From the NCBI GenBank assembly GCA_043817155.1, contig JBDRHE010000087.1, positions 983-64,982 on the forward strand: a DNA stretch of 64,000 nucleotides. Direction: 5' to 3'. This DNA is from Candidatus Omnitrophota bacterium. Lineage in GTDB: Bacteria; Omnitrophota; Gorgyraeia; JABMRN01; RBG-13-46-9. The notes under the pieces were generated by a model that searched no databases, had not been told where the DNA came from, and worked only from the letters and a program-made list of their open reading frames with translations. Position numbers and translations under genes: made by a program. Below are positions 1 through 47,934 of the stretch, piece after piece (the first letter of the stretch is position 1; the number at the start of each line of letters is the position of its first letter).

Positions 1-59
1 CGGGCCTCGGAGAGATTGCTTCGGCACGCTCCGGATAACAAGGTGCCTCGCAAAGACGA
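1..59. repeat. Family-A modular repeat, partial copy cut by the window edge (R-arm GAGATTGCTTCGGCACGCTC...GGTGCCTCGCAAAGACGA)
   Basis: Near-identical to the R-arms at 23757-23803, 27115-27156, 28934-28978, 47791-47896. Confidence 0.7.
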
Positions 60-80
60 ATAATTGAACTCAGAATAGTA

Positions 81-109
81 TTGACATATAGAAGACCCTG
101 TGTTTAAAT
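81..109 (+). promoter_or_regulatory. Sigma70-like promoter, TTGACA-N17-TTAAAT, upstream of thi4
   Basis: Hexamers 81-86 and 104-109; RBS AAGGAGGTG at 116-125. Confidence 0.4.
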
Positions 110-133
110 ACGAAATCAAGGAGGTGCGTTATC

Positions 134-961
134 ATGTTTAAGAAAGTAAGCGAAGCGAGCATAAGTAGAGCAATTGTAAGGGATTTTTCAAAGTGGTTTG
201 ATGATTATATTACCTCAGATGTTATTGTAGTAGGCGGAGGGCCGAGTGGGCTTATTGCTGCCAGGGAGCTTGCAAAGAAGAATCTAAAGACTCTCGTAAT
301 CGAGAGCAATAATTATCTCGGTGGAGGTTTCTGGATCGGTGGATATTTAATGAACACCTTAACTTTCAGATCTCCCGCGGAGAGTGTGCTTGATGAACTT
401 GGGATACAGTACGAAGAGGCCGAAGAAGGACTCTTCACAGCGATGGGTCCCAATGCCTGTTCAAAACTCATTTCAGCAGCTTGTGATGCCGGGGTTAAGA
501 TACTCAATATGACCAAGTTCGATGACGTAGTATACAGAAATAATAAGGTTGAGGGCGTGGTTGTTAACTGGACGCCCGTATCCGCTCTCCCAAGGCAGAT
601 CACCTGTGTGGATCCTATCGCGCTTGAAAGCAAGATCGTTATTGATGCAACAGGCCACGACGCGTGCGTATGCAAGAGCCTTGCGAAGAGGAATATTATT
701 AAGCTAGCGGATTTCGGTCCCATGGATGTTCAGACTTCGGAAGACCTTGTAGTAGAGAAGACAGGCCAGATCCATCCGGGTCTTGTAGTTATGGGCATGG
801 CAGTCTCTACGGCTTATGGTATACCACGTATGGGCCCGACCTTCGGCGGAATGCTACTTTCCGGGAAGAAGGGCGCAAAGGTTGTAAGCGACATACTGTC
901 AAATGGTGGCGCTCAGCCTAAGCCGCATTGTGTTCCCACAAGAGAGACAGCAGCAGTATAA
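134..961 (+). CDS. thi4: Thi4-family thiazole synthase (archaeal-type, sulfide-dependent)
   Basis: GGGPSGL dinucleotide-binding motif and the conserved PRMGPTFGGM region. Confidence 0.85.
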   Translation: MFKKVSEASISRAIVRDFSKWFDDYITSDVIVVGGGPSGLIAARELAKKNLKTLVIESNNYLGGGFWIGGYLMNTLTFRSPAESVLDELGIQYEEAEEGLFTAMGPNACSKLISAACDAGVKILNMTKFDDVVYRNNKVEGVVVNWTPVSALPRQITCVDPIALESKIVIDATGHDACVCKSLAKRNIIKLADFGPMDVQTSEDLVVEKTGQIHPGLVVMGMAVSTAYGIPRMGPTFGGMLLSGKKGAKVVSDILSNGGAQPKPHCVPTRETAAV

Positions 962-1003
962 ATTAGAAGCAATCCGGACACAGAAGACATTTCAATGCAA
1001 GAA

Positions 1004-1045
1004 GTAGGGGAGGTTTAAACCTCCCCTACTTTGTCCTGCTTTTGC
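1004..1045 (+). terminator. Rho-independent terminator after thi4
   Basis: Perfect 10-bp stem GTAGGGGAGG/CCTCCCCTAC with loop TTTAAA, followed by TTTGTCCTGCTTTT. Confidence 0.7.
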
Positions 1046-1083
1046 GTTCTTCGCGGCATTTTTGCTGGCCGCAACCGAACAAT

Positions 1084-1243
1084 AATCAAGTCCCGGGCTT
1101 GATTAAAGAGGTTTACCTAGAAAGCCCGGGACTTGATTCGGGTAAATGTGTTTGCATTACAGCCCCGGGCTTTTTATCAGCAGAAGCTTATCAAGCTTCT
1201 GTTGCTTACACGATAACCTCTGTTATCCAAGCACGGGGCTGGA
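1084..1243. repeat. Family-C nested palindromes (CAAGTCCCGGGCTTG arms; central CAGCAGAAGCTTATCAAGCTTCTG palindrome)
   Basis: Inverted arms around TAAAGAGGTTTACCTAG; related copies at 2659-2848, 9598-9652, 61727-61810. Confidence 0.7.
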
Positions 1244-1259
1244 ATGCCTTTAAAAAATT

Positions 1260-2654: not shown

Positions 2655-2658
2655 TGCA

Positions 2659-2848: not shown

Positions 2849-2871
2849 CACATTAATAAACGGAGTAATTA

Positions 2872-6700: not shown

Positions 6701-7963
6701 ATGAGTGTTAAAAAAGCATCAATAGTCGTTTCTCTTCTCTTTATATTACATGCGGCATGCGCATATTCTGAGGAGGGCATGGGTACAAGGCTGGGGTCGC
6801 TTATAGATGAAGCTTTGCTTAATAATCCGAAAGTGAAAGCAGAATATGATAAGTATAGCGCTAAGAGGTCAGAAGCAATACAGGTCGGCGCGCTGCCTGA
6901 CCCGAAACTCAGTTATTCATATTTCGGAGAGAGTGTCGAGACGAGAGTGGGGCCGCAAGAGAACAAGTATGGCGCATCCCAAACCATTCCTTTCCCGGGC
7001 AAGCTAATTCTTAAACGGCAGGCCGTTAAGAAGGAAGCGGCTATCCTGAAAGAGCGATATGAGGCGCAGAAGAGGGAACTCGAAAAGAATGTACGTTTCA
7101 CCTACTATGATATCTTCTGGATGGATAGGGCTATAGATATCACTCAGCAGGAGAAGAGCATTATCGATAATCTCGAAAAGGTGGCAAAGAAAAAATACGA
7201 AACTGCAATGTCCCCACAGCAGGATGTTATCAAGGCGCAGGTGGAGATTTCGAAACTTATCGATAAGCTATTTATGCTGAAGGCCCATAGGAAGAGTCTC
7301 GAGGCCAAGATGAATAGTCTTCTCTCCAGGCCAAAGGCGACACCGTTTGACAAGGTACAGGAGATAGATATAGAAGAGTTTGATTATTCACTTGCGGATC
7401 TGCACAAAATGGCAGGCAGAACCAGGCATGAATTGATCGCCGCGAATCTGGATATAGAGAGGGCAGAATATCAAAGGTCTCTGGCGAACCTCGACTTTCT
7501 GCCGGATTTCAGCTTCGGTTTCGATTATATAGATGTAGGAGATGGCAAGACAATGCAAGCTGATGACGGAAAGGACGCGTGGATGACCACATTTACTGTT
7601 AGCGTCCCGATCTGGCTAGATAAGCAGGTAGCCGGAGTAGAGGAGAAACAGGCAGTCTTGCGGTCAAGTAAAAGTAATTACGAAGATATTAAGAATACGG
7701 TCATCTACGAGGTAGAGGATATCTATTATAAGATAATTGCATATAGGGATATAGTCGGCCTGTATGAGACGGCCCTGGTTCCCCAGACAGAGCAGGCGTT
7801 TGAGGCGTCCAGGACAGCGTATGAAGCGGGAAAGGTAGACTTTTTAAATTGGCTTGACGCCGAGAGGGTGCTTTTGCAGACAAAGTTGGCGTATTATAAA
7901 TCGATAGTTGATTACGAGAAATCGATCGCATATCTTGAGCGCGTTGTCGGTCAGGATCTCTAA
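6701..7963 (+). CDS. Outer-membrane efflux protein (TolC/CusC family)
   Basis: Signal peptide; two OEP repeats; sits next to the RND and MFP genes. Confidence 0.8.
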   Translation: MSVKKASIVVSLLFILHAACAYSEEGMGTRLGSLIDEALLNNPKVKAEYDKYSAKRSEAIQVGALPDPKLSYSYFGESVETRVGPQENKYGASQTIPFPGKLILKRQAVKKEAAILKERYEAQKRELEKNVRFTYYDIFWMDRAIDITQQEKSIIDNLEKVAKKKYETAMSPQQDVIKAQVEISKLIDKLFMLKAHRKSLEAKMNSLLSRPKATPFDKVQEIDIEEFDYSLADLHKMAGRTRHELIAANLDIERAEYQRSLANLDFLPDFSFGFDYIDVGDGKTMQADDGKDAWMTTFTVSVPIWLDKQVAGVEEKQAVLRSSKSNYEDIKNTVIYEVEDIYYKIIAYRDIVGLYETALVPQTEQAFEASRTAYEAGKVDFLNWLDAERVLLQTKLAYYKSIVDYEKSIAYLERVVGQDL

Positions 7964-8028: not shown

Positions 8029-8107
8029 TGTCATTCCCGCGTAAGCGGGAATCCAGAGTAGGGGGGCTCGTCTGAATCCCCGCTTTCGCGGGGATGACAT
8101 GTGGGAG
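8029..8107. repeat. Family-B REP-like element (TGTCATTCCCGCG-TAAG-CGGGAATCCAG ... CTGAATCCCCGC-TTTC-GCGGGGATGACATGTGGGAG)
   Basis: Two hairpins arranged as a larger inverted repeat; copies at 12939-13027, 26995-27074, 27764-27853, 27962-27997. Confidence 0.75.
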
Positions 8108-8127: not shown

Positions 8128-9588
8128 ATGGAGAAAATGATGAGAAAGAGTATACGTTCTATTATAATAGCTATCCTAGTTATCTTAATCGGCTTTTTTG
8201 CCTTCAGACATTTGTTTGGAAATAAGCCAACCGAGAACCGAGAACCGAGAACCGAGAACCGAGTAGAGTATTACACCTGTGGAATGCATCCGAGTGTAAA
8301 GATCTCACCGGAGGCTTACGACAAGGGCAGCGTAAATTGCCCGATATGTAATATGAAATTAGTGCCCGTATATTCCGCCGAAGGCGGATCCGCCTATGAC
8401 GGAAAGGAGGCCAAAACGAACGGGGCATCTAGAGAAAAAAAGATACTCTTTTATCGTAATCCCATGAATCCGAACATTACATCAAAAGAATCGGCCAAGG
8501 ATGAGATGGGCATGGAGTATATTCCTGTATATGAAGAGGCTGAAGAAGGCGGCGAGTATTATGGATGCGGCATGGAGGGCGAAGAACATCAATTCCTGAT
8601 GAAAGATGTTGAAGCCATGGACTGCCCTATATGCGGTATGCCCCTTAAGAAATTATCAAAAGAAGAAGCGGACAAATTAAAAGGCGTAGTTAGCAGGGTG
8701 AAGTTAGGCGAAAAATTGGCGGCATCAACAGGGGTGAGGACAGGGCTTGTTAGAAAGCTACGATTATATAAAGTAATCCGCACGGTAGGCAGTGTCGCAT
8801 ATGATCCTGAGCTTGCGATTACTCAAGAAGAATTTATATCCAGCCTTCGAGCGTTAGATGAAATGAAGGAAGGCAATATTCCAGAAATCAAGGAAAGAGC
8901 TCTTAAGCTTGTAGAATCATCCAAGAGGAAACTGAGGCTTTTAGGTTTAAGCATTGAGCAGATAGAGAAACTGGAGAGCAAAAGAGAGGTACAGACGAAC
9001 CTAATACTTCCGGAAGAGAAGATGTGGATTTACGGTGACGTATATGAATATGAACTTTCCTGGGTAAAGAAAGATGCGAAGGTAAAAGTTACTACCTCAA
9101 GCCTCCCGGGGGAAGAATTTAATGGGATCATTTCATCGTTAAATCCTGTATTAGACCGAAAGACGCGCACAGTACGATTTCGGGCCGAGGTTGACAATCC
9201 GGGCTTAAGACTAATACCTGAGATGTATGTCGATGTAGCCATTACGAGCATGTACAAAGGACCGGAAGACGAAGATATGGTCTTAGCTATCCCTAAGGAA
9301 GCTATCCTGGATACAGGTGTACGGAGAATTGTGTGGATTGATAAGGGGAATGGAGAATACGAAGGCAGAAGAGTCGAAATAGGTCCAGAGGCTACTTCCT
9401 CTATAAGCGGAGAAGAAGCCAAGTTCTACCCTGTGTTAAAAGGTCTAAAAGAGGGCGATCTTGTAGTAACAAAAGCGAACTTTTTGGTAGATTCCCAGAG
9501 CCAGCTTACAGGGGCAGCGGCCGTGGCATACGGAGGGGCGATAGGAGTAGACGAGGACAAAGAACCGAAGGGATCGCATTCACATTAA
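8128..9588 (+). CDS. Efflux RND periplasmic adaptor (CusB/CzcB family) with N-terminal heavy-metal-binding CxxC/MHP motifs
   Basis: YYTCGMHPSV...CPICNMKL and YYGCGM...CPICGMPL motifs; MFP beta-barrel/lipoyl region; contains the (AACCGAG)5 tract at 8229-8263. Confidence 0.8.
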   Translation: MEKMMRKSIRSIIIAILVILIGFFAFRHLFGNKPTENREPRTENRVEYYTCGMHPSVKISPEAYDKGSVNCPICNMKLVPVYSAEGGSAYDGKEAKTNGASREKKILFYRNPMNPNITSKESAKDEMGMEYIPVYEEAEEGGEYYGCGMEGEEHQFLMKDVEAMDCPICGMPLKKLSKEEADKLKGVVSRVKLGEKLAASTGVRTGLVRKLRLYKVIRTVGSVAYDPELAITQEEFISSLRALDEMKEGNIPEIKERALKLVESSKRKLRLLGLSIEQIEKLESKREVQTNLILPEEKMWIYGDVYEYELSWVKKDAKVKVTTSSLPGEEFNGIISSLNPVLDRKTRTVRFRAEVDNPGLRLIPEMYVDVAITSMYKGPEDEDMVLAIPKEAILDTGVRRIVWIDKGNGEYEGRRVEIGPEATSSISGEEAKFYPVLKGLKEGDLVVTKANFLVDSQSQLTGAAAVAYGGAIGVDEDKEPKGSHSH

Positions 9589-9597: not shown

Positions 9598-9652
9598 TTC
9601 AAGTCCCGGGCTTGTTTAAAGTGGTTTACCTAGAAAGCCCGGGACTTGAATG
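9598..9652. repeat. Family-C palindrome, third copy
   Basis: TTCAAGTCCCGGGCTTG...AAGCCCGGGACTTGAATG; followed by two GGGGACAGTCCCC hairpins at 9685-9697 and 9714-9727. Confidence 0.7.
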
Positions 9653-9760: not shown

Positions 9761-12700
9761 ATGATCAACAAAATCATCGAAACATGTCTTAAAAATAGAT
9801 TTCTAGTTATAGCGGTATTTGTTTTTATTGTTGTATGGGGCTTCTCTTCCATGCAAGATATCCCTATTGACGCCATTCCTGATATAGGCGAACTGCAGGT
9901 CATAGTTTACGCAGATTGGCCAGGAAGGAGTCCCAGGGACGTGGAAGACCAGGTGATATACCCCTTGACAACAGGACTTATGGGTACTCCGGGTGTAAAA
10001 GTGGTGCGCTCTACATCGGCTTTTGGTTTTGGTATAGTTAATATGATCTTCAAAGACGGAACCGACTTCTATTGGGCAAGAACGCGTGTTTTGGAAAGGT
10101 TGGATTTCGCCAAAAAAGATGTGCCTAAGGATGTTAGTGTTACTTTAGGCCCCGATGCCACTGCATTAGGGCAGATATTCTGGTATACAGTTGAAGGCGA
10201 AGGATATGATCTGGCCCAGCTTCGCTCTATACAGGACTGGTATATACGTTATCAGTTAAATGCCGTAGAAGGAGTTTCGGAAGTAGCCTCCGTGGGCGGA
10301 TATGTTAAGCAGTATCAAATAGACGTAGATCCGAATAAGCTGCTTGCTTATGATATCAAGATCCATAAAGTTATGAGCGCTGTTCGGAGTTCTAATATCG
10401 ACGTAGGCGCTAAGGTCTTTGAGGAGGGCGGAGCGGAGTTTATTGTGCGGGGAATAGGGTTTATTAAAAATACGGAAGACATAGAAGACATAGTCATAGG
10501 TTCAAAAGAGGGTGTTCCTATTTATATCAAGAATGTAGCGAATGTAATAATAGGCGCGGATTTCAGGAGAGGCGCACTTGATAAAGCGGGAAAAGAGGTT
10601 ACGGGCGGTGTTATACTTATGCGTTATGGAGAAAACCCTCTTAAGGTAATAGAGCGCATAAAGAATAAAATGGGAGAACTATCAGTTGGATTGCCGAAAG
10701 GCGTAAAGATCATACCCTTTTACGATAGGACAGGTCTCATCTTACGGTCCATAGATACGCTAAAAGACGCCCTTATCCAGGAGATAATAATTACCGTACT
10801 AGTAATTATCATATTTTTACTCCATTTCTGGGGCAGTGTAGTTATAGCTATAGTTTTACCTATAGGGGTATTGATCTCCTTTATTCTGATGAAGCAGTAT
10901 GGTATAGACGCGAATATTATGTCTTTAGGAGGTATCGCGATAGCGATAGGTGTTATGGTAGATTCCGGCTGTGTTTTGGTTGAAAATATCTACAGAAGGA
11001 TTACGACCAGACGACTGGAACTGGGAGTAGAGCGTCTTAAACCCGATGAAAGATTAAATGTATGCATATCAGGAGCACAGGAAGTGGGAAAGCCTGTCTT
11101 ATTCGCATTGCTTACCACCATTATAGGATTTATGCCTGTTTTTGTCTTAACCGGCCAGGCAGGCAAGCTCTTCAGGCCTCTTGCCTTTACAAAGACATTC
11201 GCTATGATGGGGGCCGCTATGATCGCGCTTATGCTCCTTCCGACGCTCTGTTATTATTTTTTAAAAGGCAGGATGCGGCATGTTGACGATAATAAGACAG
11301 CCCAATTTCTATATAAAATATATAAACCTGCTATTAATTGGTCGCTAAAGCGCAAAAATATAGTAGTTTTTATTTCTATAGGAATTATAATAGCCGGACT
11401 ATTCTGCGCCTCTTTAATGAAACAAGAATTTATGCCTCCTCTAAACGAAGGCGATCTTTTATTTATGCCCGTCCTTCTGCCGGGCGCGTCGCTTACTCAG
11501 GTAATGGAGGTTATGAAAAAGCAGGATATTACAATTAAAAGTGAGTTTCCTGAGGTCGAATGGGCTGTCGGCAAACTCGGTCGTGCCGAAACATCTACAG
11601 ATCCCGCCCCTGTAACCATGATTGAGACGATTATTCATCTAAAGGATAAGAAGTTTTGGCGTAAAGGCATGACTAGAGAAAAACTTATTCGCCAGATACA
11701 AGAGAAGACCAAGATAGCCGGAGTTAGCCCCATAATGACGCAGCCTATAAGAAACAGGATCGATATGCTGGCTACGGGAATACAGACGCCGGTGGGCATA
11801 AAAGTTTTCGGAAAAGATTTAAGTACGATTGTTGAGGTGGCCACAGAGATAGAAAAAATTGTAAGCGGAGTGGAAGGAGCCGTGAGCCCATATGCCGAAC
11901 GCACGTCTAACAGGCCATACTTTGAGATCGAGATTGACAGAAAACAGGCGGCCAGGTACGGTGTTGAGATAGGTGACATACAGCATATTATTATGACCGC
12001 GATAGGAGGTATGAACCTAACCACAACTGTTGAAGGCAGAGAACGCTATCCGGTAAGGGTGAGATACTTAAGAGAATTGCGGGATAGTCCTGAAGCATTA
12101 AATAGGATATTTGTTCCCACGCCGCAAGGAGAGCATATTCCGTTAACCCAGGTTGCTCGGCTCAAGAAAGTCCCAGGTCCGGCCGTCATAAACTCCGAAA
12201 ATACACTTACATACGCAAGGATATTTGTTAACGTTGATCAAGATATTGTTGGATTGATAGATTTTGTTAACAATGCTCAAAATGCGGTAAAAGAGAAGAT
12301 AGACAGCGGTGAACTAAAACTTCCTCCGGGCTATTTTATCAGTTGGTCGGGACAGTTTGAGAGTGAGATGGAATCGAGAAAGAAGCTAATCCCATCGCTT
12401 ATAATTGCTTTATTCGTAATCATGATATTGCTTTACGTGGCATTTAAGAACTTTAGTACTCTTCTTATTCTAGCAACCGGCCTTCCCGTAGGACTTATGG
12501 GAGGCATAATTCTGCTGTTCTTCCTCAATTTTAAATTTTCCACAGCCGTATGGGTAGGCTTTATCGCTTTGTTCGGCGTAGCCACGGACAACGCAGTAGT
12601 ATTACTCTCTACGCTAGAAGACCTATTTAAGAAGAAGGTGCCCAAGTCCGTGGAAGATATACGTAAGACAGTTATAGAGGGTGGACTCTTACGAGTAAGA

Positions 12701-12938: not shown

Positions 12939-13027
12939 TGTCATTCCCATGAAAATGGGAATCCAGAGGTGAGTTTTCGAAGAGTTTACCCTGGATCCCC
13001 GCTTACGCGAGGATGACATGTGGGAAA
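12939..13027. repeat. Family-B REP-like element
   Basis: TGTCATTCCCATGAAAATGGGAATCCAG ... CTGGATCCCCGCTTACGCGAGGATGACATGTGGGAA. Confidence 0.75.
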
Positions 13028-15159: not shown

Positions 15160-15232
15160 AGTAAGTAGCGAGTAGCAAGTAGAGAGTAGAGAGAGACTTT
15201 CTTGCTACTTGCTACTCTCTACTCGCTACTTA
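15160..15232. repeat. Family-D AGTAG/CTACT hairpin element (purine-rich arm then complementary pyrimidine-rich arm)
   Basis: Near-identical 70-bp copy at 46131-46200; followed by an A/T tract. Confidence 0.7.
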
Positions 15233-15279: not shown

Positions 15280-15792
15280 ATGATAAGTAAGAAGATGACC
15301 AAGAGCATTAACGACCAAATAAACAAAGAACTCTATTCTGCCTACCTGTATCTGGGAATGGCTACCTTTGCGGCCGGGAAGGGCTTTCCGGGAGCCGCAA
15401 ACTGGTTCTCCGTTCAGGTGAAGGAAGAGATGACGCATGCAGAGAAGTTCTTCAATTACGTGAACCAGCAGGGTGAGCGTGTCCTGCTCGATGCAATAGA
15501 AAAGCCGCCCCAAGACTTTAAGTCGTTACTCAATTGTTTCGAAGAGACGCTAAAACATGAGAAGAAGGTAACAGGCCTCATTAACGACCTTGTAGATATC
15601 GCGAAGAAGGAGAAGGACCATGCGACAGAAGCGGCTCTGCAGTGGTTTGTATCAGAACAGGTGGAGGAAGAGTCGAGCGCCCAGGAGATCATTCAAAAAT
15701 TTAAGCTTATTGGTAACGACGGCAGTGGGCTTCCTACCATAGATAGTCAGCTAGCAACCAGGGTATTTACACCCTCGGTTGCAGGGGCATAG
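15280..15792 (+). CDS. ftn: Ferritin (non-heme, Ftn-like)
   Basis: Ferritin diiron ligand pattern (E..Y..E..H..E..QE). Confidence 0.85.
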
Positions 15793-15833
15793 GGAGAGAC
15801 TTTCGAACCGACGAACTAAAATGGAGGTTAACA

Positions 15834-16055
15834 ATGAAGGAGAGAATAGAAGCTGCTTTAAATAAGGTAAGACCATCACTTCAAGCGGATGGCGGGAATG
15901 TAGAGCTTGTAGACGTTACAGCGGACGGGGTTGTTAAAGTTAAACTGACAGGGGCTTGCGGGAGCTGTCCCATGAGTCAGATGACACTTAAGATGGGGAT
16001 AGAGAAGGCCATTAAGAAAGAGGTTCCGGAGGTTAAAGAGGTTACAGCGGTATAA
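15834..16055 (+). CDS. NifU C-terminal-domain (Nfu-type) Fe-S carrier
   Basis: [15 protein letters not shown] CxxC motif. Confidence 0.85.
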
Positions 16056-16075
16056 ATATAATAAAAGCAAGGGTG

Positions 16076-16522
16076 ATGAGATTGAAGAAGAAAGAAGGAT
16101 TCTTAAAGAAACTTTCGCAGGCGATCGACGCGGAGAACACCTCCGCGATCTGTTACTGGCACCTTTCAGCATTGATCAAGAACGGAAAGAGCAAGAGTAA
16201 GCTTAAAGCATTCTCCACTACGTCCAAGGAGAACAAGGCATTGTTGCTTGAACGCCTTAAAGGTGAAGGTAAGGGAGATTTTGCCCTGGAGAAGGGATGT
16301 GAATTCTGCAAGATGGATCCCCAGGATCTATCCGTCATAGGAAGTGTCAACCTTGGACTCGAAATGACGAAGATCGCGGCAAAACTTTATAAGGATCTCC
16401 TGGCTTCAAGCAGGACAGGGGGCGATAGGTCTCTATTTAAAAGAATATTAAATACCAAGACAGATCAAAACAGGTTCCTGAGACGAGAGAAGAGTTTTGC
16501 TCCGGAAGCCCAAGAGGCTTAG
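16076..16522 (+). CDS. Hypothetical protein
   Basis: Intact ORF with RBS; no recognisable family (possibly a helical bundle). Confidence 0.4.
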   Translation: MRLKKKEGFLKKLSQAIDAENTSAICYWHLSALIKNGKSKSKLKAFSTTSKENKALLLERLKGEGKGDFALEKGCEFCKMDPQDLSVIGSVNLGLEMTKIAAKLYKDLLASSRTGGDRSLFKRILNTKTDQNRFLRREKSFAPEAQEA

Positions 16523-23568: not shown

Positions 23569-23803
23569 GAAATACATTGAAATACGATTGAGATACATTG
23601 AAATGCAATTGACATACGTAGATGAGCGCGGATACACAACTCGTCTTTGCGAGGTGTCGTAAATAGGTTAGCGCACCGAAGCAATTTGCTAAGTCCGTCT
23701 TTGCGAAGTGCCGTAATATAACGAGCGCACTGAAGCAATCGCAAACTAGCTCGAATGAGATTGCTTCGGCACGTTCGAATATTCCGGTGCCTCGCAAAGA
23801 CGA
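23569..23803. repeat. Family-A modular repeat, full copy (module 1 ATACGATTGAGATACATTGAAATGCAATTGA; two forward hairpin units; spacer; reverse R-arm)
   Basis: Units TCGTCTTTGCGAGGTG-C-GTAA...AGCGCACCGAAGCAAT and reverse GAGATTGCTTCGGCACG...CCTCGCAAAGACGA form ~48-bp TIR-like ends. Confidence 0.8.
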
Positions 23804-23819: not shown

Positions 23820-24374
23820 ATGGAATATAAAACAGCGCTTGCAAAGGCATGGTTGGAATTGACCAATCTGTCGAAGGATAAGAGATATACCGTTCGGTTT
23901 CTAAGCGATAAGTATGATGTTGATCTTGAAAGCGGTCAGATCCTTTCCCTGTCCTGTAATATACCGGTTAAAGAGTATGCCGCTATTCTCATTTTGCACT
24001 ACTTGATCAAGAAGCTAAAAGGTTTACCATCTTTAAGGGAGGAGTGGGTCTCCTTTAAAGAGTTTGTGGGCGGACAGGGGTATTACCCCGCTTTTAAGAA
24101 GAGGGTTATAGGCACCATAAGGAAAAAGTACGGCCAGAAACCCGAAGGGCTCTATGGCCTGGCTGAACGGTTTCGCGCAAAGAAAGCTCAGCTGGCGGAC
24201 GTTAGCGTTGTCCTTGACACATTTGAAACTATCGTACCTATATTAATAACCTTCTGGCGGAAAGACGAAGAGTTCGGACCTGAGGCCAATGTACTTTTTG
24301 ATAAGAGTATCACCGATATCTTTTGCACAGAAGATATCGCTGTCTTGTCGGAGATCGTAGCTCATAGCATATAG
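23820..24374 (+). CDS. Hypothetical protein (possibly DUF3786-like)
   Basis: First ATG outside the repeat; the track's GTG start at 23787 lies inside repeat sequence. Confidence 0.5.
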   Translation: MEYKTALAKAWLELTNLSKDKRYTVRFLSDKYDVDLESGQILSLSCNIPVKEYAAILILHYLIKKLKGLPSLREEWVSFKEFVGGQGYYPAFKKRVIGTIRKKYGQKPEGLYGLAERFRAKKAQLADVSVVLDTFETIVPILITFWRKDEEFGPEANVLFDKSITDIFCTEDIAVLSEIVAHSI

Positions 24375-26834: not shown

Positions 26835-27156
26835 GATGAACGCAGATGGGTAAGCAACGATGAACGATGGACGATTCGAAAATAGTGGAAATACGATTGA
26901 AATGCAATTGAAATACATTGATGAGCGCGGATGCATGCCTCGTCTTTGCGAGGTGCCGTAATACACTAAGCGCACCGAAGCAATCTCAGACTTCTGTCAT
27001 CCCCGCGCAAGCGGGGATCCAGAGGGAACTCGTCGAGAGTACATCCATGGATTCCCGCTTCCGCGGGAATGACAACTTTAGATTGCCTGCCTGCCAGTAT
27101 ATTTCGGGCAGGCAGGCTTCGGCACGCTCGAATATTCCGGTGCCTCGCAAAGACGA
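26835..27156. repeat. Family-A modular repeat carrying a nested Family-B REP pair and the CCTGCCTGCC...GGCAGGCAGG palindrome
   Basis: Module 1 at 26835-26939, hairpin unit 26940-26987, REP hairpins 26995-27074, palindrome 27085-27118 inside the R-arm. Confidence 0.8.
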
Positions 27157-27642: not shown

Positions 27643-27710
27643 ATAGCGGATAGCGTTTAGCGAATAGCGGATAGGTAATTATGCACAAGTACACTAGCTC
27701 AATACTTCCC

Positions 27711-27997
27711 TCGTCTTTGCGAGGTGCCGTAATATACTAAGCGCACCGAAGGTTAAAACATCTTGTCATTCCCGCGCAAGCGGGAATCCAGGCGGAAATG
27801 ACAAATACATTAGAAAGATACACTTCTGGATCCCCGCTTTCGCGGGGATGACAGAATAACGGAGATTGTGCCACCGCTACTTTCGCATGGTGGGGTCCCG
27901 CAATGCATAAGCAACGGCGGGAAAAGCGGGAATCCATGGATGTGCTCTCAATGAGCTCACTCTGGATCCCCGCTTACGCGGGGATGACATGTGGGAA
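27711..27997. repeat. Cluster: one Family-A hairpin unit (27711-27752) followed by Family-B REP hairpins (27764-27853, 27962-27997) and a related two-hairpin motif (27866-27925)
   Basis: The 27866-27925 motif is homologous to 13133-13190 with compensatory stem changes. Confidence 0.7.
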
Positions 27998-28744: not shown

Positions 28745-29036
28745 CGTTCACGCTACGATGGACGACGGACGTAGGACAATGGACGATTCGAAGATAGCGG
28801 AAATACGATTGAGATACATCGAAATGCAGTTGAAATGCAATTGAAATACATTGATGAGCGCAGACACACAACTCGTCTTTGCGAGGTGCCGTAAATAGTT
28901 GAGCGTACCGAAGCAATCTCTCCGAGCTAGTATGAGATTGCTTCGGCACACTCGAATTTTACGGTGCCTCGCAAAGACTAGGAAAGATGAGATTACTTCG
29001 ACACGTATTAAAAATGAAGGTGCCTCGCGATGGCGA
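28745..29036. repeat. Family-A modular repeat, running into the annotated 5' end of trxB
   Basis: Module 1, forward unit 28873-28920, R-arm 28934-28978, degenerate R-arm copy 28987-29036. Confidence 0.8.
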
Positions 29037-29952: not shown

Positions 29953-30170
29953 CACGCGAATTTAATAGTAAACTTACGATGGATGATGGAAGATGGACGA
30001 AGGACGATTCGAAGATAACGGAAATACGATTGAGATACATCGAAATGCAATTGAAATACATGGATGAGCCCATATACACAACTCGTCTTTGCGAGGCACC
30101 GAAATATTCGAGCGTGCCGAAGCCTGCCTGCCCGCCCGCCAGAATTTCTTACTGGCAGGCAGGCAATCTC
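29953..30170. repeat. Family-A modular repeat with the CCTGCCTGCC palindrome inserted into the hairpin unit
   Basis: Module 1 then unit 30083-30170 carrying the palindrome at 30123-30164; a TATAAT at 30192-30197 lies downstream. Confidence 0.8.
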
Positions 30171-30231
30171 AAGCTAGCCCGGAGAGACGCGTATAATCTT
30201 GTGTCTATGTGTCCCGAGAGTACTTGAAGCT

Positions 30232-35646: not shown

Positions 35647-36120
35647 ATGAAAAGAGAAGAGATCCTGAAAGACTTAAAAGAGAGATTCAAAGGCGATATA
35701 ATAGATGTCTTTGACAAGACTATAAAGAGGGTATATATCGAAATCTACCCGAAATCCATAAGAAGGGTTGCCACCTATGTCTTTAAGGATCTTGGCGCCA
35801 GATTCAATATTGCCTCAGGCGTAGATGTACGCGACCATATGGAGATTCTCTATCATTTTACAATCGAAGAGATAAATCTCCTGATATCCTTGAGGGTGAA
35901 GCTCGATAAGTCAAAGCTGGAGATAGACTCTATTGCTCCTATTTTTGAAGGAGCCAATTGGATAGAGAGGGAGATTCACGAAATGTTCGGAATAGACTTT
36001 AAGGGGCACCCGGATATGAGGAGACTCCTCCTACCCGACGGGTGGCCGGAAGGCGTATATCCTTTGCGGCGAGATTACAAGGAATGGGATAAGGGCGCGA
36101 TAAGGGATAGAGGGGTATAA
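35647..36120 (+). CDS. mbhK: NuoC/MbhK-like subunit
   Basis: NuoC-family fold; operon position. Confidence 0.8.
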   Translation: MKREEILKDLKERFKGDIIDVFDKTIKRVYIEIYPKSIRRVATYVFKDLGARFNIASGVDVRDHMEILYHFTIEEINLLISLRVKLDKSKLEIDSIAPIFEGANWIEREIHEMFGIDFKGHPDMRRLLLPDGWPEGVYPLRRDYKEWDKGAIRDRGV

Positions 36121-36123
36121 TAA

Positions 36124-36252
36124 AATGTTTCTTAAGGTTACTTGAGGTTTCTTGAGGTTGCACTTCGTTTGCAAAATCCCGAAACTTTAAGAAACATTCC
36201 GAAACCTGAAGAAGCCTCAAGTAACGTTAAGCAACCTAAGGAAAGAAACATA
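36124..36252. repeat. Family-E imperfect inverted repeat (GTTTCTTAAGGTT / GAGGTTTCTTGAGGTTGCA), inside the operon upstream of mbhL
   Basis: Second copy at 43506-43612 upstream of mbhN. Confidence 0.7.
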
Positions 36253-39109: not shown

Positions 39110-39658
39110 ATGGTTGAACTATACATATTATTAATTCTGATGATCATGGGCGCGATAATCGCCGTTGAGGTTAAGGACATGCTCTCTTCGGTTGTAGCGG
39201 TAGGAGCGGTGGGCCTCATTCTCTCAATAGCCTTTTTGATACTAAAAGCACCCGATGTTGCTATTACCCAGCTCGTTGTTGAGATATTGGCCCTCATTAT
39301 CTTAATCAGGGCAACACTTAAGAAGGATCTGCCTTTTTCAACATCCGGAAGATGGGTACTAAATACCGTAATTACTTTTGCGTTCATAGGCGTGCTGCTA
39401 CTTGTCGCGCGCAAATGTTTCGCTGACTTGCCGGAATTTGGCTATCCTATAATGAGAGTGGCGGATACCTATATAAAGGACGGGCTCTTGAAGACAGGCG
39501 CAACCAACGTTGTGTCATCCGTTATACTGGATTTCAGGGCTTTCGATACACTTGGTGAGGCGACGGTCCTGTTTACAGCAGTTATAGGTGTATTGGCTAT
39601 TGTCAGGCGTACCGGAAGAAAGACGGAAGGTCAGAAGATAGAGGAAGAGGAAGAATAA
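39110..39658 (+). CDS. MrpA C-terminal / MnhB-domain protein (DUF4040-like)
   Basis: VILDFRAFDTLGE motif typical of the MrpA C-terminal/MnhB domain. Confidence 0.7.
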   Translation: MVELYILLILMIMGAIIAVEVKDMLSSVVAVGAVGLILSIAFLILKAPDVAITQLVVEILALIILIRATLKKDLPFSTSGRWVLNTVITFAFIGVLLLVARKCFADLPEFGYPIMRVADTYIKDGLLKTGATNVVSSVILDFRAFDTLGEATVLFTAVIGVLAIVRRTGRKTEGQKIEEEEE

Positions 39659-39930
39659 TGAGCCCCGTTAGACCTCTATATTTTACATATGTTTTAGAAA
39701 GTGAGAAGACAGGTGAATTCTATACTGGTGCTACATCCGATTTAAAGAAAAGAATAGTGAAACATAATAAAGGTTTGGTTGCTTCTACAAAATGTAGAGT
39801 TCCATTATATTTAGTATATTTTGAAGCATGCTTTAACAAAGAAGATGCTTTTCGCAGAGAAAAATATCTGAAATCTGGAATGGGTAAACGATATATCAAA
39901 AATCGATTAAGAGGAGATCTAACGGGGTGA
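39658..39930 (+). CDS. GIY-YIG nuclease-superfamily protein (YhbQ/UPF0213-like) inserted inside the mrp module
   Basis: LYFTYVLESEKTGEFYTGATSDLKKRIVKH matches the GIY-YIG core; markedly AT-rich; 1-nt and 4-nt overlaps with flanking genes. Confidence 0.7.
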   Translation: MSPVRPLYFTYVLESEKTGEFYTGATSDLKKRIVKHNKGLVASTKCRVPLYLVYFEACFNKEDAFRREKYLKSGMGKRYIKNRLRGDLTG

Positions 39931-43177: not shown

Positions 43178-43505
43178 TATTATTGGGTTGGTATTTATTG
43201 GCATTGGGCTGGCATTCGATGTTTTCGGGTGTCTGGGTCTTGTAAGGCTTCCAGATGTGTATAATCGTCTGCAAGCTGCGACAAAGTGCGTGACACTCGG
43301 CACCTGCAGCATTCTATTCGGAACGTTTCTCATAGTTGGACTTACGGCTGCAGGAGTAAAATCGCTACTTTGCATAGTGTTTCTCATATTGACCTCTCCT
43401 GTTGCGGCACATGCGATAGCCAGGGGCGCCCACAGGGCGGGTGTCAAGCTCTGTGACGAAAGCGTGATAGATAAATATAAAGAAGATAAAGAAGGGGAAG
43501 CATAA
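43170..43505 (+). CDS. mrpG: Mrp antiporter subunit G
   Basis: MnhG family (LVRLPDVYNRLQAATK). Confidence 0.8.
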   Translation: MNDIIGLVFIGIGLAFDVFGCLGLVRLPDVYNRLQAATKCVTLGTCSILFGTFLIVGLTAAGVKSLLCIVFLILTSPVAAHAIARGAHRAGVKLCDESVIDKYKEDKEGEA

Positions 43506-43612
43506 GAGGTTTCTTAAGGTTTCGGAATGTTACTTAAGGTTTCTTGAGGTTGCAACAACTTAAATGCAACATAAAGAAACTTCCCGGAACCTAAAGAAAC
43601 ATTAAGAAACAT
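43506..43612. repeat. Family-E imperfect inverted repeat, second copy
   Basis: GAGGTTTCTTAAGGTTTCGGAATGTTACTTAAGGTTTCTTGAGGTTGCA ... GAAACATTAAGAAACAT. Confidence 0.7.
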
Positions 43613-43621
43613 AAAATATAT

Positions 43622-44233
43622 ATGAGATTACCAAAGATAAGGGAAGTTATCGAGGCGGTAAAAGCGCTTATCAAGGGCCCATATACATCGAAGTTCCCTG
43701 CGGAACCTCACGTTCCACATCCCAATTTCAGGGGTCAACCCAAGTTTAACGATAAGAGGTGTGTAGGGTGCCTGGCGTGCGAAGAGGTTTGCCCGGTAAA
43801 CGCCATAGATCATAAGGACCGGATGGATGATAAGCCGGACGCGAAGCGTATCATGATCCATTACACCGATACGTGCATTTTCTGCGGTCAATGTGAGGCC
43901 GCATGTATAGCCGATCATGAGGGCATCAAGCTTTCGAACGACTGGGAGCTCTCATTCTTCGACAGAAAAGAGGCCCAGGAGTCTATCGAAAAGAAGCTGG
44001 AGCTTTGTGAAATTTGCGGCTCGGTAATTGCCTGCAAAGACCATTTAAAGTGGATCTCTCTTAAATTGGGCGAACTTACATATTCAAGTCCTACCTTGTA
44101 CCTCTCCCGCCTTAAGAGCCTCGGAATTATAGATAATAACATCATATCCGCATTGAAAGATAACGGTCGCTCTGACAGGGTGAAGATCTTGTGTGCCCGT
44201 TGCAGAAGAGAGACTACTCTTACCACGAAATAG
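43622..44233 (+). CDS. mbhN: NuoI/HycF/MbhN-like 2x[4Fe-4S] subunit
   Basis: CVGCLACEEVCP and CIFCGQCEAAC motifs. Confidence 0.8.
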   Translation: MRLPKIREVIEAVKALIKGPYTSKFPAEPHVPHPNFRGQPKFNDKRCVGCLACEEVCPVNAIDHKDRMDDKPDAKRIMIHYTDTCIFCGQCEAACIADHEGIKLSNDWELSFFDRKEAQESIEKKLELCEICGSVIACKDHLKWISLKLGELTYSSPTLYLSRLKSLGIIDNNIISALKDNGRSDRVKILCARCRRETTLTTK

Positions 44234-44323
44234 CCTTAAGCTTTAAGCCATAAGCCTTAAATGTATCTTCTCTAACGAGCGCAGATGATGAGACTTACGG
44301 CTTATAGCTTATAGCTTACAGCT
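44234..44323. repeat. Family-F ATAAGCT/AGCTTAT-rich inverted repeat directly after a stop codon
   Basis: AAGCCATAAGCC...GGCTTATAGCTTATAGCTT; copies at 46503-46577 and 52117-52212. Confidence 0.7.
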
Positions 44324-45025: not shown

Positions 45026-45041
45026 TTACACAGATTAGGGA

Positions 45042-46139
45042 GTGATTACACAGATGAGCAAGGGTTCGAACATACTGGCTCTCGGGGCCGATATGAAGAG
45101 CAGGTATCTGGTCGCAAGCGGCAGCAAGCTCGAGTTCGGTCCGGAGATAGGGGATCTCGGCGAGGCCAGGAACTTCGCATTCTTCAAGAGGAAAGTACAA
45201 CAGGTCGTCAAAAGGACAAAGCCGGCTATTATAACGCATGACCTGCATCCCGGTTATTTTTCCACCCGATTGGCCAGGAGAATAGGCGCCGAACATCCTG
45301 CTGCCAGTCTACTGCCGGTCCAACACCACTATGCTCACATAGCAAGCGTGATGGCCGAATTTGGATTAAAAGGACCCGCTATAGGGGTTGCGCTTGACGG
45401 AACAGGTTTGGGTACTGACGGAAATATATGGGGTGGCGAATTTATTGTGGTGAGAAACCGGAACTTCAACCGTGTGGGGCATTTCAAATATATCAGGATG
45501 CCGGGCGGGGAGAAGGTTATAAGCGAGATCTGGAGAATGGTTATTAGCATACTGGGCAGAGTCGGGTGTCCGTTCCTAAAAGATGTTGAGGAGATAGCGA
45601 AAGAGATGCTCATATCCATGATGGAGAAGGGTATCAATTCGCCGTTAACCTCAAGTGTCGGCAGGATCTTCGACGCTGCCGCGTCGCTTACAGGCGTCTG
45701 TCGGGAAGCCGCATATGAAGCGGAAGGACCGATAAAGCTCGAGAAACTATGTGATTACAAGATCAAGGAAAGTTATAATTTCACGATATCAAAAAATAAG
45801 GGCACATTTACAATCGATGTAAGGCCAATTTTTTTTGAATTGATTAAAGATCTCAAGAAAAGAACGAAGAGATCGGTTATTGCTACGAAATTCCACAATT
45901 CAATGGTTATGGCGGTCTTTAAAATGGTAAAGAAGATAACGGAAGAAACCGGGATAAAGGATGTTCTGCTCTCGGGAGGGGTGTTCCAGAACAGTTTTTT
46001 GAGAAGGAGGCTCATGGAGAAGTTGTCCAAAGCCGGGTTCAAGGTTTTTATAAATGAAAAGACGCCGGTAAATGACCATAATATAGCACTTGGGCAGTAT
46101 TATATCGCGAAGAATTATCCACAAACGAACAGTAAGTAG
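45042..46139 (+). CDS. hypF: HypF-like carbamoyltransferase, Kae1-like C-terminal domain only
   Basis: PVQHHYAHIASV and VALDGTGLGTDGNIWGGEF match the HypF C-terminal domain; no acylphosphatase, Zn-finger or YrdC domains; begins MITQM at a GATTACACAGATG motif. Confidence 0.75.
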   Translation: MITQMSKGSNILALGADMKSRYLVASGSKLEFGPEIGDLGEARNFAFFKRKVQQVVKRTKPAIITHDLHPGYFSTRLARRIGAEHPAASLLPVQHHYAHIASVMAEFGLKGPAIGVALDGTGLGTDGNIWGGEFIVVRNRNFNRVGHFKYIRMPGGEKVISEIWRMVISILGRVGCPFLKDVEEIAKEMLISMMEKGINSPLTSSVGRIFDAAASLTGVCREAAYEAEGPIKLEKLCDYKIKESYNFTISKNKGTFTIDVRPIFFELIKDLKKRTKRSVIATKFHNSMVMAVFKMVKKITEETGIKDVLLSGGVFQNSFLRRRLMEKLSKAGFKVFINEKTPVNDHNIALGQYYIAKNYPQTNSK

Positions 46140-46200
46140 CGAGTAGCAAGTAGAGAGTAGAGAGAGCTTCTCGCTACTTGCTACTCTCTACTCGCCACTT
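46131..46200. repeat. Family-D AGTAG/CTACT hairpin element, second copy, overlapping the hypF stop
   Basis: Approximately 95% identical to 15160-15232. Confidence 0.7.
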
Positions 46201-46234
46201 AAAAAAATTTGTGTCTAATAGAACTAGGTAAAGT

Positions 46235-46513
46235 ATGTGTTTAGCCACACCCGCGAAGATAAAGAAAATAGAGGAGACCGTCGATAGCGGGAAGACCGCC
46301 ATTGTTGATTTCGGTGGCGTTCAAAGAAGGATCTCTCTTGGTATCCTGAATAATGCTAAAATAGGCGACTACGTTCTTGTGCACGCCGGTTTTGCGATAG
46401 GCAAGGTTAGTAAGCTTGAAGCAGAGAATACAAAAAGGGCGTTAGAGGAGCTGCGGAGAACATACGAAGGGGCGCAAATGTATGTTGAAGATATAGATAT
46501 CCATAAGCTATAA
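46235..46513 (+). CDS. hypC: Hydrogenase maturation factor HypC
   Basis: MCLATP N-terminus (Cys2). Confidence 0.9.
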   Translation: MCLATPAKIKKIEETVDSGKTAIVDFGGVQRRISLGILNNAKIGDYVLVHAGFAIGKVSKLEAENTKRALEELRRTYEGAQMYVEDIDIHKL

Positions 46514-46577
46514 GCCGTAAGCTATAAGCTTAGACCGTTTTGAGCTTATAGCTTAAAACTTAAGGCTTAAAGCTTTG
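46503..46577. repeat. Family-F inverted repeat overlapping the hypC stop
   Basis: ATAAGCTATAAGCCGTAAGCTATAAGCTT...GAGCTTATAGCTT. Confidence 0.7.
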
Positions 46578-46597
46578 GTCAATTTAAGGAAATTGTT

Positions 46598-47608
46598 GTG
46601 AAGCAGATTAAGCTCATGGAAGTATGCGGAACGCATACAATGGCGATTGCGAGAGCAGGAATAAAGAAGGTCTTACCCAAAGGCATTAAGCTTGTATCGG
46701 GCCCGGGATGCCCTGTGTGCGTAACGGACCAGACGAATATCGATTATGCTATAGAGGTATCGCGTATTAAGGACGTTATCATGGCTACGTTCGGCGATAT
46801 GTTGCGTGTTCCCGGTTCTCAAGGTAGCCTGGATGATATAAGAAGAGAGGGTTACGACGTTCGAGTAGTGTATTCCTGTATCGATGCCCTTAAGATCGCG
46901 AAGGTTAACCCGGGCCATAGAGTTGTATTTATGGGCGTTGGTTTTGAAACTACCGCTCCTACAGTAGCAGCCAGCGTTTTGGAGGCGGAGCGAAAGGGGA
47001 TAAGCAACTTTTTTGTCTTATCGAATTTTAAACTTGTATTCCCGGCGCTCGAGATTATCTCAAGCTCGAAGAGAGTCCAGATCGACGGTTTTATATGCCC
47101 GGGGCATGTTAGCGTTATTACTGGCAGCAAACCTTACGAAAAGATCGCAAATAAATATAAGAGACCGTGTGTCATTATGGGTTTTGAACCCTCAGAGATA
47201 TTGAGTGGCATAAGCAGACTGGTCAAGCAGGTCAGGAACGGGGAGCATAAGGTCGAGATCGATTATAAGAGAGCCGTAAAAAGGTCCGGCAATGTTACTG
47301 CGCGAAATGTCCTCAATTCAGTTTTTGAAGCGGATGACGCAGAATGGAGAGGTATAGGCCAGATCAAGAAGAGTGGTTTAAGTATAAGAAGAGAATACAA
47401 GAAGTTCGACGGAAAGAGAGAATTTAATCTCATCGTCCCCCGGGCGCCGAAACCCCGTGGGTGCATATGTGGCGACGTATTACAAGGTATATATTCACCC
47501 CAGGACTGCAAATTATTTAAGAGGTTTTGTACGCCCCAGCGGCCGGTTGGGCCTTGCATGGTCTCTTCCGAGGGGACATGCGCGGCATACTTTAAGTACG
47601 GGGGGTAA
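46598..47608 (+). CDS. hypD: Hydrogenase maturation factor HypD
   Basis: CGTHT, GPGCPVC and C-terminal CPVC motifs. Confidence 0.9.
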   Translation: MKQIKLMEVCGTHTMAIARAGIKKVLPKGIKLVSGPGCPVCVTDQTNIDYAIEVSRIKDVIMATFGDMLRVPGSQGSLDDIRREGYDVRVVYSCIDALKIAKVNPGHRVVFMGVGFETTAPTVAASVLEAERKGISNFFVLSNFKLVFPALEIISSSKRVQIDGFICPGHVSVITGSKPYEKIANKYKRPCVIMGFEPSEILSGISRLVKQVRNGEHKVEIDYKRAVKRSGNVTARNVLNSVFEADDAEWRGIGQIKKSGLSIRREYKKFDGKREFNLIVPRAPKPRGCICGDVLQGIYSPQDCKLFKRFCTPQRPVGPCMVSSEGTCAAYFKYGG

Positions 47609-47896
47609 CACGGAACGCATGACACGTGAATTTAATAGTAAACTTACGATGGACGAAAGACGATGGACGGCTTTTGACTCGTCTTTGCGAGGTGCCGCAA
47701 TAGACTGAGCGCACCGAAGCAATCTCGCTAAGTCTGTCTTTGCGAAGTGCCTTAATATACTAAGCGCACTGAAGCAATCAAACTAGCTCGATGAGATTGC
47801 TTCGGCACGCTCGAATATTCCGGTGCCTCGCAAAGACGAGGAAAGCTTGAGATTGCTTCGGCACGCTCGAATATTCCGGTGCCTCGCAAAGACGAG
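47609..47896. repeat. Family-A modular repeat with the R-arm tandemly duplicated
   Basis: Forward units 47679-47726 and 47733-47779; R-arm copies 47791-47839 and 47848-47896 are 100% identical; a degenerate third start supplies the track's ATG at 47902. Confidence 0.85.
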
Positions 47897-47934
47897 AAAA
47901 GATGAGATTGATTTGGCACAAGAAAGTGAAGGGA

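Follow-up and report, generated by a model that had tools for sequence, protein, structure and literature searches.

We analysed 64 kb of DNA from a metagenome-assembled genome of a Candidatus Omnitrophota bacterium (contig JBDRHE010000087.1, positions 983 to 64,982; hereafter the window), in which a family of palindromic repeats, named family A, occurs at seven intergenic loci. The genes flanking these loci encode Thi4, DUF3786, SOR, an erythrin-like protein, TrxB, Ogg and HypE. Five of the loci lie inside 7 kb, in a cluster at 23.5-30.2 kb, and the two others are at position 12 and at 47.6 kb. Nearly all genes in the first 50 kb have redox, metal or Fe-S functions, e.g. NifS/NifU, CsoR, a Cus-like efflux system, ferritin, a flavodiiron protein, Rrf2, rubrerythrin, Rex, the Mbh/Mrp hydrogenase and the Hyp proteins. 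We propose that family A is probably a lineage-specific family of CGTC-tagged repetitive extragenic palindromic (REP) sequences, arranged in heterodimeric inverted doublets and in larger mosaics that resemble bacterial interspersed mosaic elements (BIMEs) and REP doublets forming hairpins (REPINs).

A preliminary description had reported a dispersed palindromic repeat family with inverted arms at seven or more loci. Inspection of the sequence found all seven loci where they had been placed, and the family proved to comprise 15 units in seven regions. The core 18-mer TCGTCTTTGCGAGGYRCC, with up to three mismatches, matches the window 15 times, when 0.06 matches are expected by chance. We aligned the 15 units, built a covariance model from the alignment and ran the search with filters off. 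This retrieved exactly 15 units (50-73 bits, E ≤ 6e-11), the next match having an E of 0.21. All 15 are intergenic, with none inside a coding sequence. The family had been tied to stress and redox genes, a claim that found no support: the association is the base rate, because nearly every gene in this part of the window has a redox, metal or Fe-S function, and family A is present in just 7 of the 33 intergenic regions that measure 40 nt or more. Several of the other intergenic regions hold different repeat families. That each element ends just upstream of a + strand gene is true yet uninformative. The + strand carries every sizeable open reading frame (ORF) up to about 62 kb, so that any intergenic element is 3' of one gene and 5' of the next. 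The GC skew is also positive throughout, with a monotonic rise of the cumulative skew, and the sole sizeable ORF on the - strand is at 62326-63762.

A unit of family A spans about 48 nt. It consists of an unpaired (T)CGTC head, a basal stem of 4 bp (TTGC/GCAA), an internal loop that is conserved and asymmetric (5' GA, 3' GAA), a distal stem of 5 bp whose arms are separated by 15 unpaired nt (15 alignment columns), and a TCTC tail. The head is CGTC in 12 of the 15 units, TGTC in one, and AGTC or CGCC in two degenerate units. The distal stem comes in two compensatory versions, GGTGC/GCACC and GGCAC/GTGCC. Type 1 units (GGTGCC..GCGCACC) have seven copies, all on the + strand, and type 2 units (GGCACC..GCGTGCC, loop GGAATATTCGAGC) have eight, of which seven are on the - strand and one on the + strand. 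Below, F denotes a type 1 unit on the + strand and R a type 2 unit on the - strand, numbered where a locus has several.

Two compensatory pair changes distinguish the two types. A third two-sided change is seen in the F2 variants starting at 23695 and 47734, where the closing pair of the distal stem passes from G-C to A-U. Pairing is retained in 98.3% of the cells of the 15-unit alignment and in 100% of those of the distal helix, three pairs being altered on both sides. The compensatory stem changes pointed out earlier, which were taken to imply selection on RNA or DNA structure, are real. They amount to only two or three evolutionary events, and show that the hairpin is maintained and nothing further. 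The pattern of wobbles and mismatches in the heterodimers, worked out from the unit sequences, is symmetric between the strands. Hence, structure alone gives no sign of selection on RNA over DNA.

The units are organised in doublets in which a type 1 unit is followed by a short spacer with GCTAGC or CTAGCT and by an inverted type 2 unit, the heads pointing outward. Four such doublets are complete; they lie upstream of the genes for DUF3786, SOR, TrxB and HypE. When single-stranded, a doublet can fold either into two hairpins or into one long hairpin. At the DUF3786 locus, an array of 11-mers (GAAATRCAATT, period 10-11 nt; 23569-23630, + strand) directly follows the stop codon of the 6PGL gene. 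It precedes F1 (23641-23688, +) and the variant F2 (23695-23742, +, head CCGTC), and then R (23757-23803, -), which forms a long hairpin with F2 and ends 16 nt before the ATG at 23820. The predicted fold of this region has an energy of -82.5 kcal/mol (z-score -4.65).

The SOR locus starts downstream of the rubrerythrin stop codon with ACGATGG heptads (26856-26875) and an 11-mer array, which together cover 26856-26927 on the + strand. The F unit (26940-26987, +, 73.3 bits) and the R unit (27080-27156, -, covariance model) are separated by a doublet of a second family, family B (TGTCATYCCCGCG..GCGGGRATCCA; 26995-27074), recognised by sequence comparison as CGTC-1/dRS3-like and inserted in the spacer of the family A doublet. 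The tail of the R unit is itself split, at GAAGC^AATC, by a palindrome (CTGCCTGCC..GGCAGGCAG, about 27087-27115). Upstream of the gene for the erythrin-like protein, a type 1 unit with a truncated tail (27711-27752, +, covariance model) is followed by two family B doublets (27764-27853 and 27924-27989). The stretch at 27862-27907 is a possible degenerate partner of this unit, although the covariance model gives no match there.

At the trxB locus, heptads (28755-28787) and an 11-mer array (the two together at 28755-28862, +) lie downstream of the glutaredoxin stop codon and are followed by F (28873-28920, +), by R (28934-28980, -), which forms a long hairpin with F, and by a degenerate second R unit in tandem (28989-29036, -, covariance model) that holds a false ATG at 28987. 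The predicted fold reaches -100.2 kcal/mol (z-score -6.6). Downstream of the trxB stop codon, the ogg locus combines a 26-nt module (GAATTTAATAGTAAACTTACGATGGA), heptads (29976-30008) and an 11-mer array, all within 29953-30070 (+), with the sole type 2 unit on the + strand (30083-30170, covariance model). This unit contains a nested palindrome (about 30124-30164), has no R partner and is followed by a TATAAT hexamer at 30192-30197. The hypE locus has the largest assembly. It opens downstream of the hypD stop codon with the module GAATTTAATAGTAAACTTACGATGGA and heptads (47646-47669), within 47617-47669 (+), and continues with F1 (47679-47726) and F2 (47734-47781), recovered by the covariance model in the same tandem as at 23641-23742. 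On the - strand it then has R1 (47793-47839) and R2 (47849-47895), both among the units retrieved by the covariance model, and the start of a degenerate third R (47899-47919). The nested fold of F1-F2-R1-R2 is predicted at -135.6 kcal/mol (z-score -9.4). Finally, thi4 is preceded by a single R unit (12-59, -, 65.6 bits), whose partner would fall past the edge of the window. The composition of the loci is thus more variable than the three modules that had been attributed to every copy: the 11-mer array is found in four loci only, the 26-nt module only at ogg and hypE, and the heptads in four loci, each time shortly after a stop codon.

Several of these arrangements are signs of recent copying. 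R1 and R2 at hypE are identical, as first described for the duplicated R arm of this locus, and Tandem Repeats Finder (TRF) reports a period of 56 nt with 2.3 copies. The F1-F2-R composite is common to the DUF3786 and hypE loci, which are 24 kb apart. The same nested palindrome (CCTGCCTGCC...GGCAGGCAGG) interrupts the unit tail at the same point (GAAGC^AATC) in 27116-27156 (-) and 30083-30123 (+); the preliminary description had noticed this pair in opposite orientations, and we found the two units to be 98% complementary over 52 nt. The family B doublets within the spacers of two family A doublets have different flanks and orientations, which argues for independent insertions. We searched for target-site duplications at the outer heads of the doublets and found no flanking direct repeat at any of them; the two flanks read ..ACAAC|TCGTC and GACGA|GRRAAG. 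These copy patterns support the mobile-element-like spread suggested at first.

The strict family A pattern has no match in the GTDB species genomes and one partial relative in the JGI metagenomes, on a contig (L001) where it adjoins a unit of the form GAGATTGCTTCG...CTCGCAATGACG. We also looked for further copies through proteins carrying peptides encoded by the R and F arms, which gave no candidate, and queried the literature with the repeat sequence strings, which gave primer noise only. A generalised motif (GATTGCTTCG-N6-36-CTCGCAAWGAC), which does not force the partner arm, was then scanned across the GTDB species genomes and matched at least 120 loci in many phyla. Those listed include Alpha-, Gamma- and Deltaproteobacteria, Chloroflexota, Patescibacteria, Planctomycetota, Bacteroidota, Cyanobacteria, Zixibacteria, Gemmatimonadetes, Omnitrophota and others. 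Among the matches listed, the fold GTC-ATTGC-GA-[G-C-closed stem, free sequence]-GAA-GCAAT-C is shared by most of the 124 distinct units, and an inverted partner accompanies 108 of 149 units, the median spacer being 24 nt. The partner arms in this set hardly vary at their head and tail positions: C precedes the head in 60 and T in 40, and C+CAG is the most frequent tail. Family A has the features of this ATTGCGAG..CGAAGCAAT superfamily, i.e. a C/T-GTC head, an ATTGC/GCAAT stem, a GA/GAA loop, a variable distal stem closed by G-C and an inverted partner at about 24 nt, bar one substitution (ATTGC to TTTGC). Its covariance model also scores superfamily units in two other Omnitrophota (L061 and L090) and in the metagenome contig L001 at 28-46 bits, and TCT tails are found in the units of L061 and L090 as well.

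We looked for a gene that could accompany these units. A tblastn search for Y1_Tnp found none in the window, which has no transposase gene. When ORFs within 1.5 kb of the superfamily units (120 loci among the matches listed) were clustered all-against-all, there was no recurrent dedicated family and the clusters were housekeeping only (ABC transporter, DHDPS, SDR, periplasmic binding protein). A GIY-YIG enzyme, considered because small GIY-YIG genes accompany 'LLRFARND'-type repeats, was rejected as a companion, since a motif scan of 121 loci detected no such gene close to the units. The sole GIY-YIG gene of the window (39658-39930, +; Pfam E 1.2e-13) encodes a stand-alone protein of 90 residues inside the Mbh/Mrp operon, at a position unrelated to the repeats; it overlaps the end of the MbhD/E gene by one base at its start, and the beginning of the MnhB-like gene at its stop.

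The closest published class is that of the CGTC-tagged REPs (Di Nocera, De Gregorio, Rocco 2013, BMC Genomics 14:522; PMC3733652). These have an unpaired CGTC or TGTC head (with variants including CCTC), an uninterrupted stem of 8-9 bp starting with A-T and T-A, a loop of 4-5 nt and a tail of about CCA. They occur mostly as inverted dimers, often heterodimers, between unidirectional or convergent ORFs, they give repeat-encoded false N-termini, and they 'apparently lack a dedicated transposase'. The class includes dRS3 of Neisseria, linked to CGTC-1, and RPE-4 and RPE-6 of Rickettsia (PMC3733652). Family A shares with it the CGTC head, the hairpin with a short tail, the inverted heterodimers, the intergenic location, the lack of a linked transposase and the false N-termini. 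The superfamily units come close to it as well, with C or T before GTC, a stem starting with A-T, a CCA-like tail and inverted partners. The 2013 paper reports the class in five phyla, without mention of Omnitrophota (PMC3733652). Judged from the loci listed here, it appears to reach Omnitrophota, and many phyla past those five.

Family A can also be compared with other mosaic or mobile repeats. REPINs, as Bertels and Rainey in 2011 and Nunvar et al. in 2010 are said to have described them, reportedly carry a GTAG/GTGG head recognised by a REP-associated tyrosine transposase (RAYT), the gene of which is flanked by REPs. As in the REPIN-RAYT system, family A has two inverted REPs with a short spacer that form a long hairpin, and it is non-autonomous, multi-copy and without target duplication; unlike it, its head is CGTC and there is no Y1/HUH gene in the window. 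The BIMEs of E. coli, which bind IHF, gyrase or Pol I, and the neisserial intergenic mosaic elements (NIMEs) are mosaic intergenic elements. Family A resembles them in its variable mosaics of alternating REPs and short motifs, nested and clustered between genes of one operon, and differs in its accessory motifs, namely the ACGATGG heptads, the 11-mer arrays and the 26-nt module. The Correia elements of Neisseria are miniature inverted-repeat transposable elements (MITEs) with terminal inverted repeats of 26 bp and a TA target duplication; they can occur in 5' regions, be co-transcribed, give rise to promoters and yield RNase III substrates. Here the analogy is functional only, as the sequences are unrelated and we saw neither the 26-bp repeats nor the TA duplication.

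Some observations weigh against the assignment of family A to mobile CGTC-tagged REPs. First, the family breaks the published numerical definition in its stem, loop and tail. The stem is made of 4 bp, the GA/GAA loop and 5 bp, and starts with T opposite T, the substitution of T for A having cost the first pair; 15 columns instead of 4-5 nt separate the arms; and the tail is TCTC instead of CCA. The definition does fit the 5' tag, and also the dimers, the intergenic site and the lack of an adjacent transposase. Second, the data are 64 kb of one metagenome-assembled genome, and the strict motif elsewhere is limited to the one partial relative. Third, mobility is inferred from the copy patterns alone, with no empty site or polymorphism seen. 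Fourth, the R arms lie 13-74 nt from the downstream starts and the F arms 68-130 nt from the upstream stops, a trend opposite to that reported for typical REPs between unidirectional ORFs in the 2013 study (PMC3733652). Finally, the uniform orientation of the four complete doublets could reflect function and not history.

To place the family in its evolutionary context, we used four Omnitrophota relatives (L122, L124, L125 and L126) whose TrxB is 71-72% identical to that of the window. The closest overall is Omnitrophica RBG_13_46_9 (L125), and a second contig (L123) has the same protein as L122. Each of the four keeps part of the order DUF3786-Rrf2 ... rubrerythrin/SOR, erythrin-like, Grx, TrxB-Ogg, Rex ... 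Mbh, and all retain the TrxB-Ogg adjacency. Searches by pattern and covariance model found no family A or B unit in these relatives (best E 0.19), and there are no 11-mer arrays in them. In L125, the region upstream of trxB opens with TTACGATGGACGATGG, i.e. with heptads directly after the upstream stop codon (9859-9872 of L125). As the ACGATGG heptads are present there without family A, they are older than the hairpin units and separable from them. After the heptads, this slot of L125 holds a different hairpin-forming family (GTTTCTTAAGGTTGCAA), also present in the window at 36.1 and 43.5 kb. By this comparison, one intergenic slot is filled by different palindromic families in different lineages. 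The presence of different palindromes in the same slot and the absence of family A in the relatives argue against a conserved leader and for recent lineage-specific colonisation of permissive intergenic DNA.

The alternative that survives best is that family A is a co-opted regulatory cassette, in which the 11-mer array, the hairpins and the R arm act as a portable promoter, operator or 5' leader coordinating, in this lineage, the oxidative-stress genes DUF3786, SOR, trxB and ogg as well as hypE and thi4. Between the end of the last R arm and the start codon there are 16 nt at the DUF3786 gene, 45 nt at SOR, 13 nt at trxB and 40 nt at hypE. At these four loci the arm must therefore be within the transcript or at its start, and there is no space for a separate promoter. 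The R arms carry (A/T)TGAGA-17 nt-AATATT, one copy of which scores 9/12 in a sigma-70 scan. The 11-mer arrays have a period of about one helical turn and are upstream of four neighbouring redox genes, and the cluster includes a gene for an Rrf2 regulator. Yet the four relatives have the cluster without family A or 11-mer arrays, and scans for sigma-70 sites and terminators returned no more sites than shuffled sequence did (400-7000 nt were scanned for promoters), which puts the promoter match at chance level. Better hexamers can be read in the sequence downstream of the repeat at thi4 (TTGACA-17-TTAAAT at 81-109) and at ogg (the TATAAT mentioned above). The hypE copy is inside the hypC-hypD-hypE operon, and the redox association is the base rate. 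We thus regard this cassette as unlikely. We give an equally small chance to a more elaborate proposal, in which the CGTC head, the ATTGC/GCAAT stem and the GA/GAA loop would be the recognition site of a trans-acting enzyme or of an RNA-binding protein, and in which the R arm would in addition have been co-opted as a portable promoter or 5' leader 13-45 nt before redox and hydrogenase-maturation genes. The 11-mer array was also considered as an Rrf2/NsrR-type operator, from a loose likeness to the NsrR half-site; we dropped this candidate because the relatives have no such array ahead of these genes.

Family A might instead not be mobile at all, and have arisen without transposition, through gene conversion and local segmental duplication that affected intergenic cassettes, mostly at 23.5-30.2 kb. 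The clustering of five loci within 7 kb and the tandem 56-nt duplication at hypE are in line with this, as is the collinear similarity of two neighbouring intergenic regions (28754-28839 and 29975-30060, 88% identical). Such a process accounts poorly for the copies at position 12 and 47.6 kb, distant from the cluster, for the inverted unit at 30083 (+), for module combinations that differ by locus and for the nested insertions. Moreover, the unit is part of a dispersed multi-copy superfamily present in many phyla. Local duplication as the whole explanation is rather improbable.

A classical MITE, i.e. a deletion derivative of an insertion sequence with a DDE transposase that moves by cut-and-paste via its terminal inverted repeats, would also be multi-copy and intergenic, with inverted arms and a total length of 110-220 nt as seen here. 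The MITE-like family considered in the preliminary description is nevertheless a poor fit in this classical sense. No direct repeat flanks any doublet, the window has no transposase gene, the arms are independent hairpins that also occur singly and in tandem, and their sequence belongs to the REP-type CGTC superfamily. We consider this origin very unlikely. Least plausible is a structured cis-regulatory RNA, riboswitch-like or protein-binding and selected at the RNA level: it would agree with the compensatory distal-stem changes and the very stable folds predicted for the + strand, but Rfam has no match in the window at gathering thresholds (and nothing relevant in 10 superfamily loci) and noise only at E ≤ 5 over 26.8-30.25 kb, the covariation consists of two or three events that distinguish subtypes, the element is a plain palindrome that folds equally on either strand with symmetric wobbles and mismatches, and the orthologous leaders of L122, L124, L125 and L126, which share much gene order with the window, are without units or 11-mer array, so that the family of RNA leaders first envisaged is not supported.

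False start codons in gene calls are the one demonstrated effect of family A. The NCBI TrxB protein (P0001, 321 aa) is 100% identical to that of the window and starts at the ATG 28987 of ATGAGATTA, in the degenerate R unit. Its C-terminus is native, and its N-terminus has an extension of 21 residues that is encoded by the repeat and absent in four aligned homologues of 300-301 aa. These start with MYDLIIIGAG, which corresponds to 29050 (one has an extra N-terminal M, and V replacing the first M), and the alignment places the true trxB start at 29050. The hypE ORF is called at ATG 47902, within the degenerate third R copy. Its true start is likely at 47936 (M-V-K-S-E-I-V-T-L-A-H-G), an N-terminus that we take to be the usual one for HypE. 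The claim that ATGAGATTG in the R arm makes spurious starts is thus confirmed for trxB and likely for hypE, but not correct for the 23787 ORF, which starts at a GTG within the R arm. Family B has a similar effect, as the ATG in GATGACATGTGGGA yields the false start 27989 of the erythrin-like ORF, whose true start is likely 28032. As a consequence, public annotation gets wrong starts, with 21 surplus residues in the NCBI TrxB and the same kind of error in the hypE, DUF3786 and erythrin ORFs. The repeats also yield spurious small ORFs, and annotators could mask them with a simple unit model.

Other repeats are abundant in the window. Family B doublets (TGTCATYCCCGCG-NAA-GCGGGRATCCA) are found at 8029-8099 and 12939-13018, in addition to the three nested at family A loci (26995-27074, 27764-27853, 27924-27989). 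The unit has a TGTC head, a stem of 8 bp starting with AT, a loop of 4 nt and a CCA tail, and by these features family B fits the description of CGTC-1 (dRS3-like) exactly. Its doublets are also heterodimers (ATTCCC and ATCCCC stems), with conserved outer flanks (..ATTTTCGYACC.. and TGTGGGARAA). Family C is made of TCAAGYCCCGGGCTTGA palindromes in long inverted arrangements (1085-1250, 2653-2818, 9599-9649) that flank the cysteine desulfurase gene and precede the AcrB-like gene. The decamer palindrome family (GTTTCTTAAGGTT..) lies on either side of the Mbh/Mrp gene block of the window (36111-36235 and 43493-43612), and in L125 it lies at about 7080-7180 and 9880-9990, upstream of SOR and trxB, in the slots of family A in the window. 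Tandem arrays of 7-8 nt followed by reverse-complement arrays, such as (AGTAGAG)n..(GCTACTC)n and (ATAAGCT)n..(AGCTTAA)n, occur at 15163-15231, 27643-27674, 44232-44323, 46134-46199, 46503-46575 and 52121-52209. Some are inside the hyp operon, and all would form long hairpins; L125 has a like arrangement with other units at 8433-8699. The HypF homologue at 45042-46139 (+, 365 aa) is preceded by a 224-nt gap and has the C-terminal Kae1-like domains only, without the usual N-terminal acylphosphatase, zinc-finger and YrdC parts. Further downstream, at 53947-61704 (+) and 62326-63762 (-), very large ORFs (1549 and 1019 aa) have internal repeats of 225 and 441 nt and many diverged copies of 38-50 nt, which suggests long repetitive, possibly coiled-coil proteins. 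Finally, L122 encodes at 15607-16381 a Y1 transposase, IS200-like or RAYT-like (gene 15679-16167, -, Pfam E 1.3e-18), with tandem 14-nt arrays on either side (TGTCCCAAAGTGCC, TGTCCCAAGGTGAC); the arrays end in short inverted copies and bear no relation to family A.

If family A belongs to the CGTC-tagged REPs, its units and composites would have multiplied recently inside this genome. Because no target duplication is left, the copying was probably dependent on hairpins or single strands, and it would have been carried out by a putative trans-acting enzyme of the CGTC class. Copies would have survived in intergenic DNA only. Those inside co-directional arrays (grx-trxB-ogg, rbr-SOR, hypD-hypE) are for this reason probably transcribed, and the stable RNA hairpins would then serve as incidental elements of mRNA processing, stability or insulation. 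It is striking that the CGTC class keeps its basal stem and internal loop invariant while its distal stems vary freely. A family that appears young and expanding, with identical tandems, nested insertions and no counterpart in syntenic relatives, would make its genome a good candidate in which to seek the missing mobilising factor, and such a genome may also be suited to test the effect of giant intra-operonic hairpins on mRNA.

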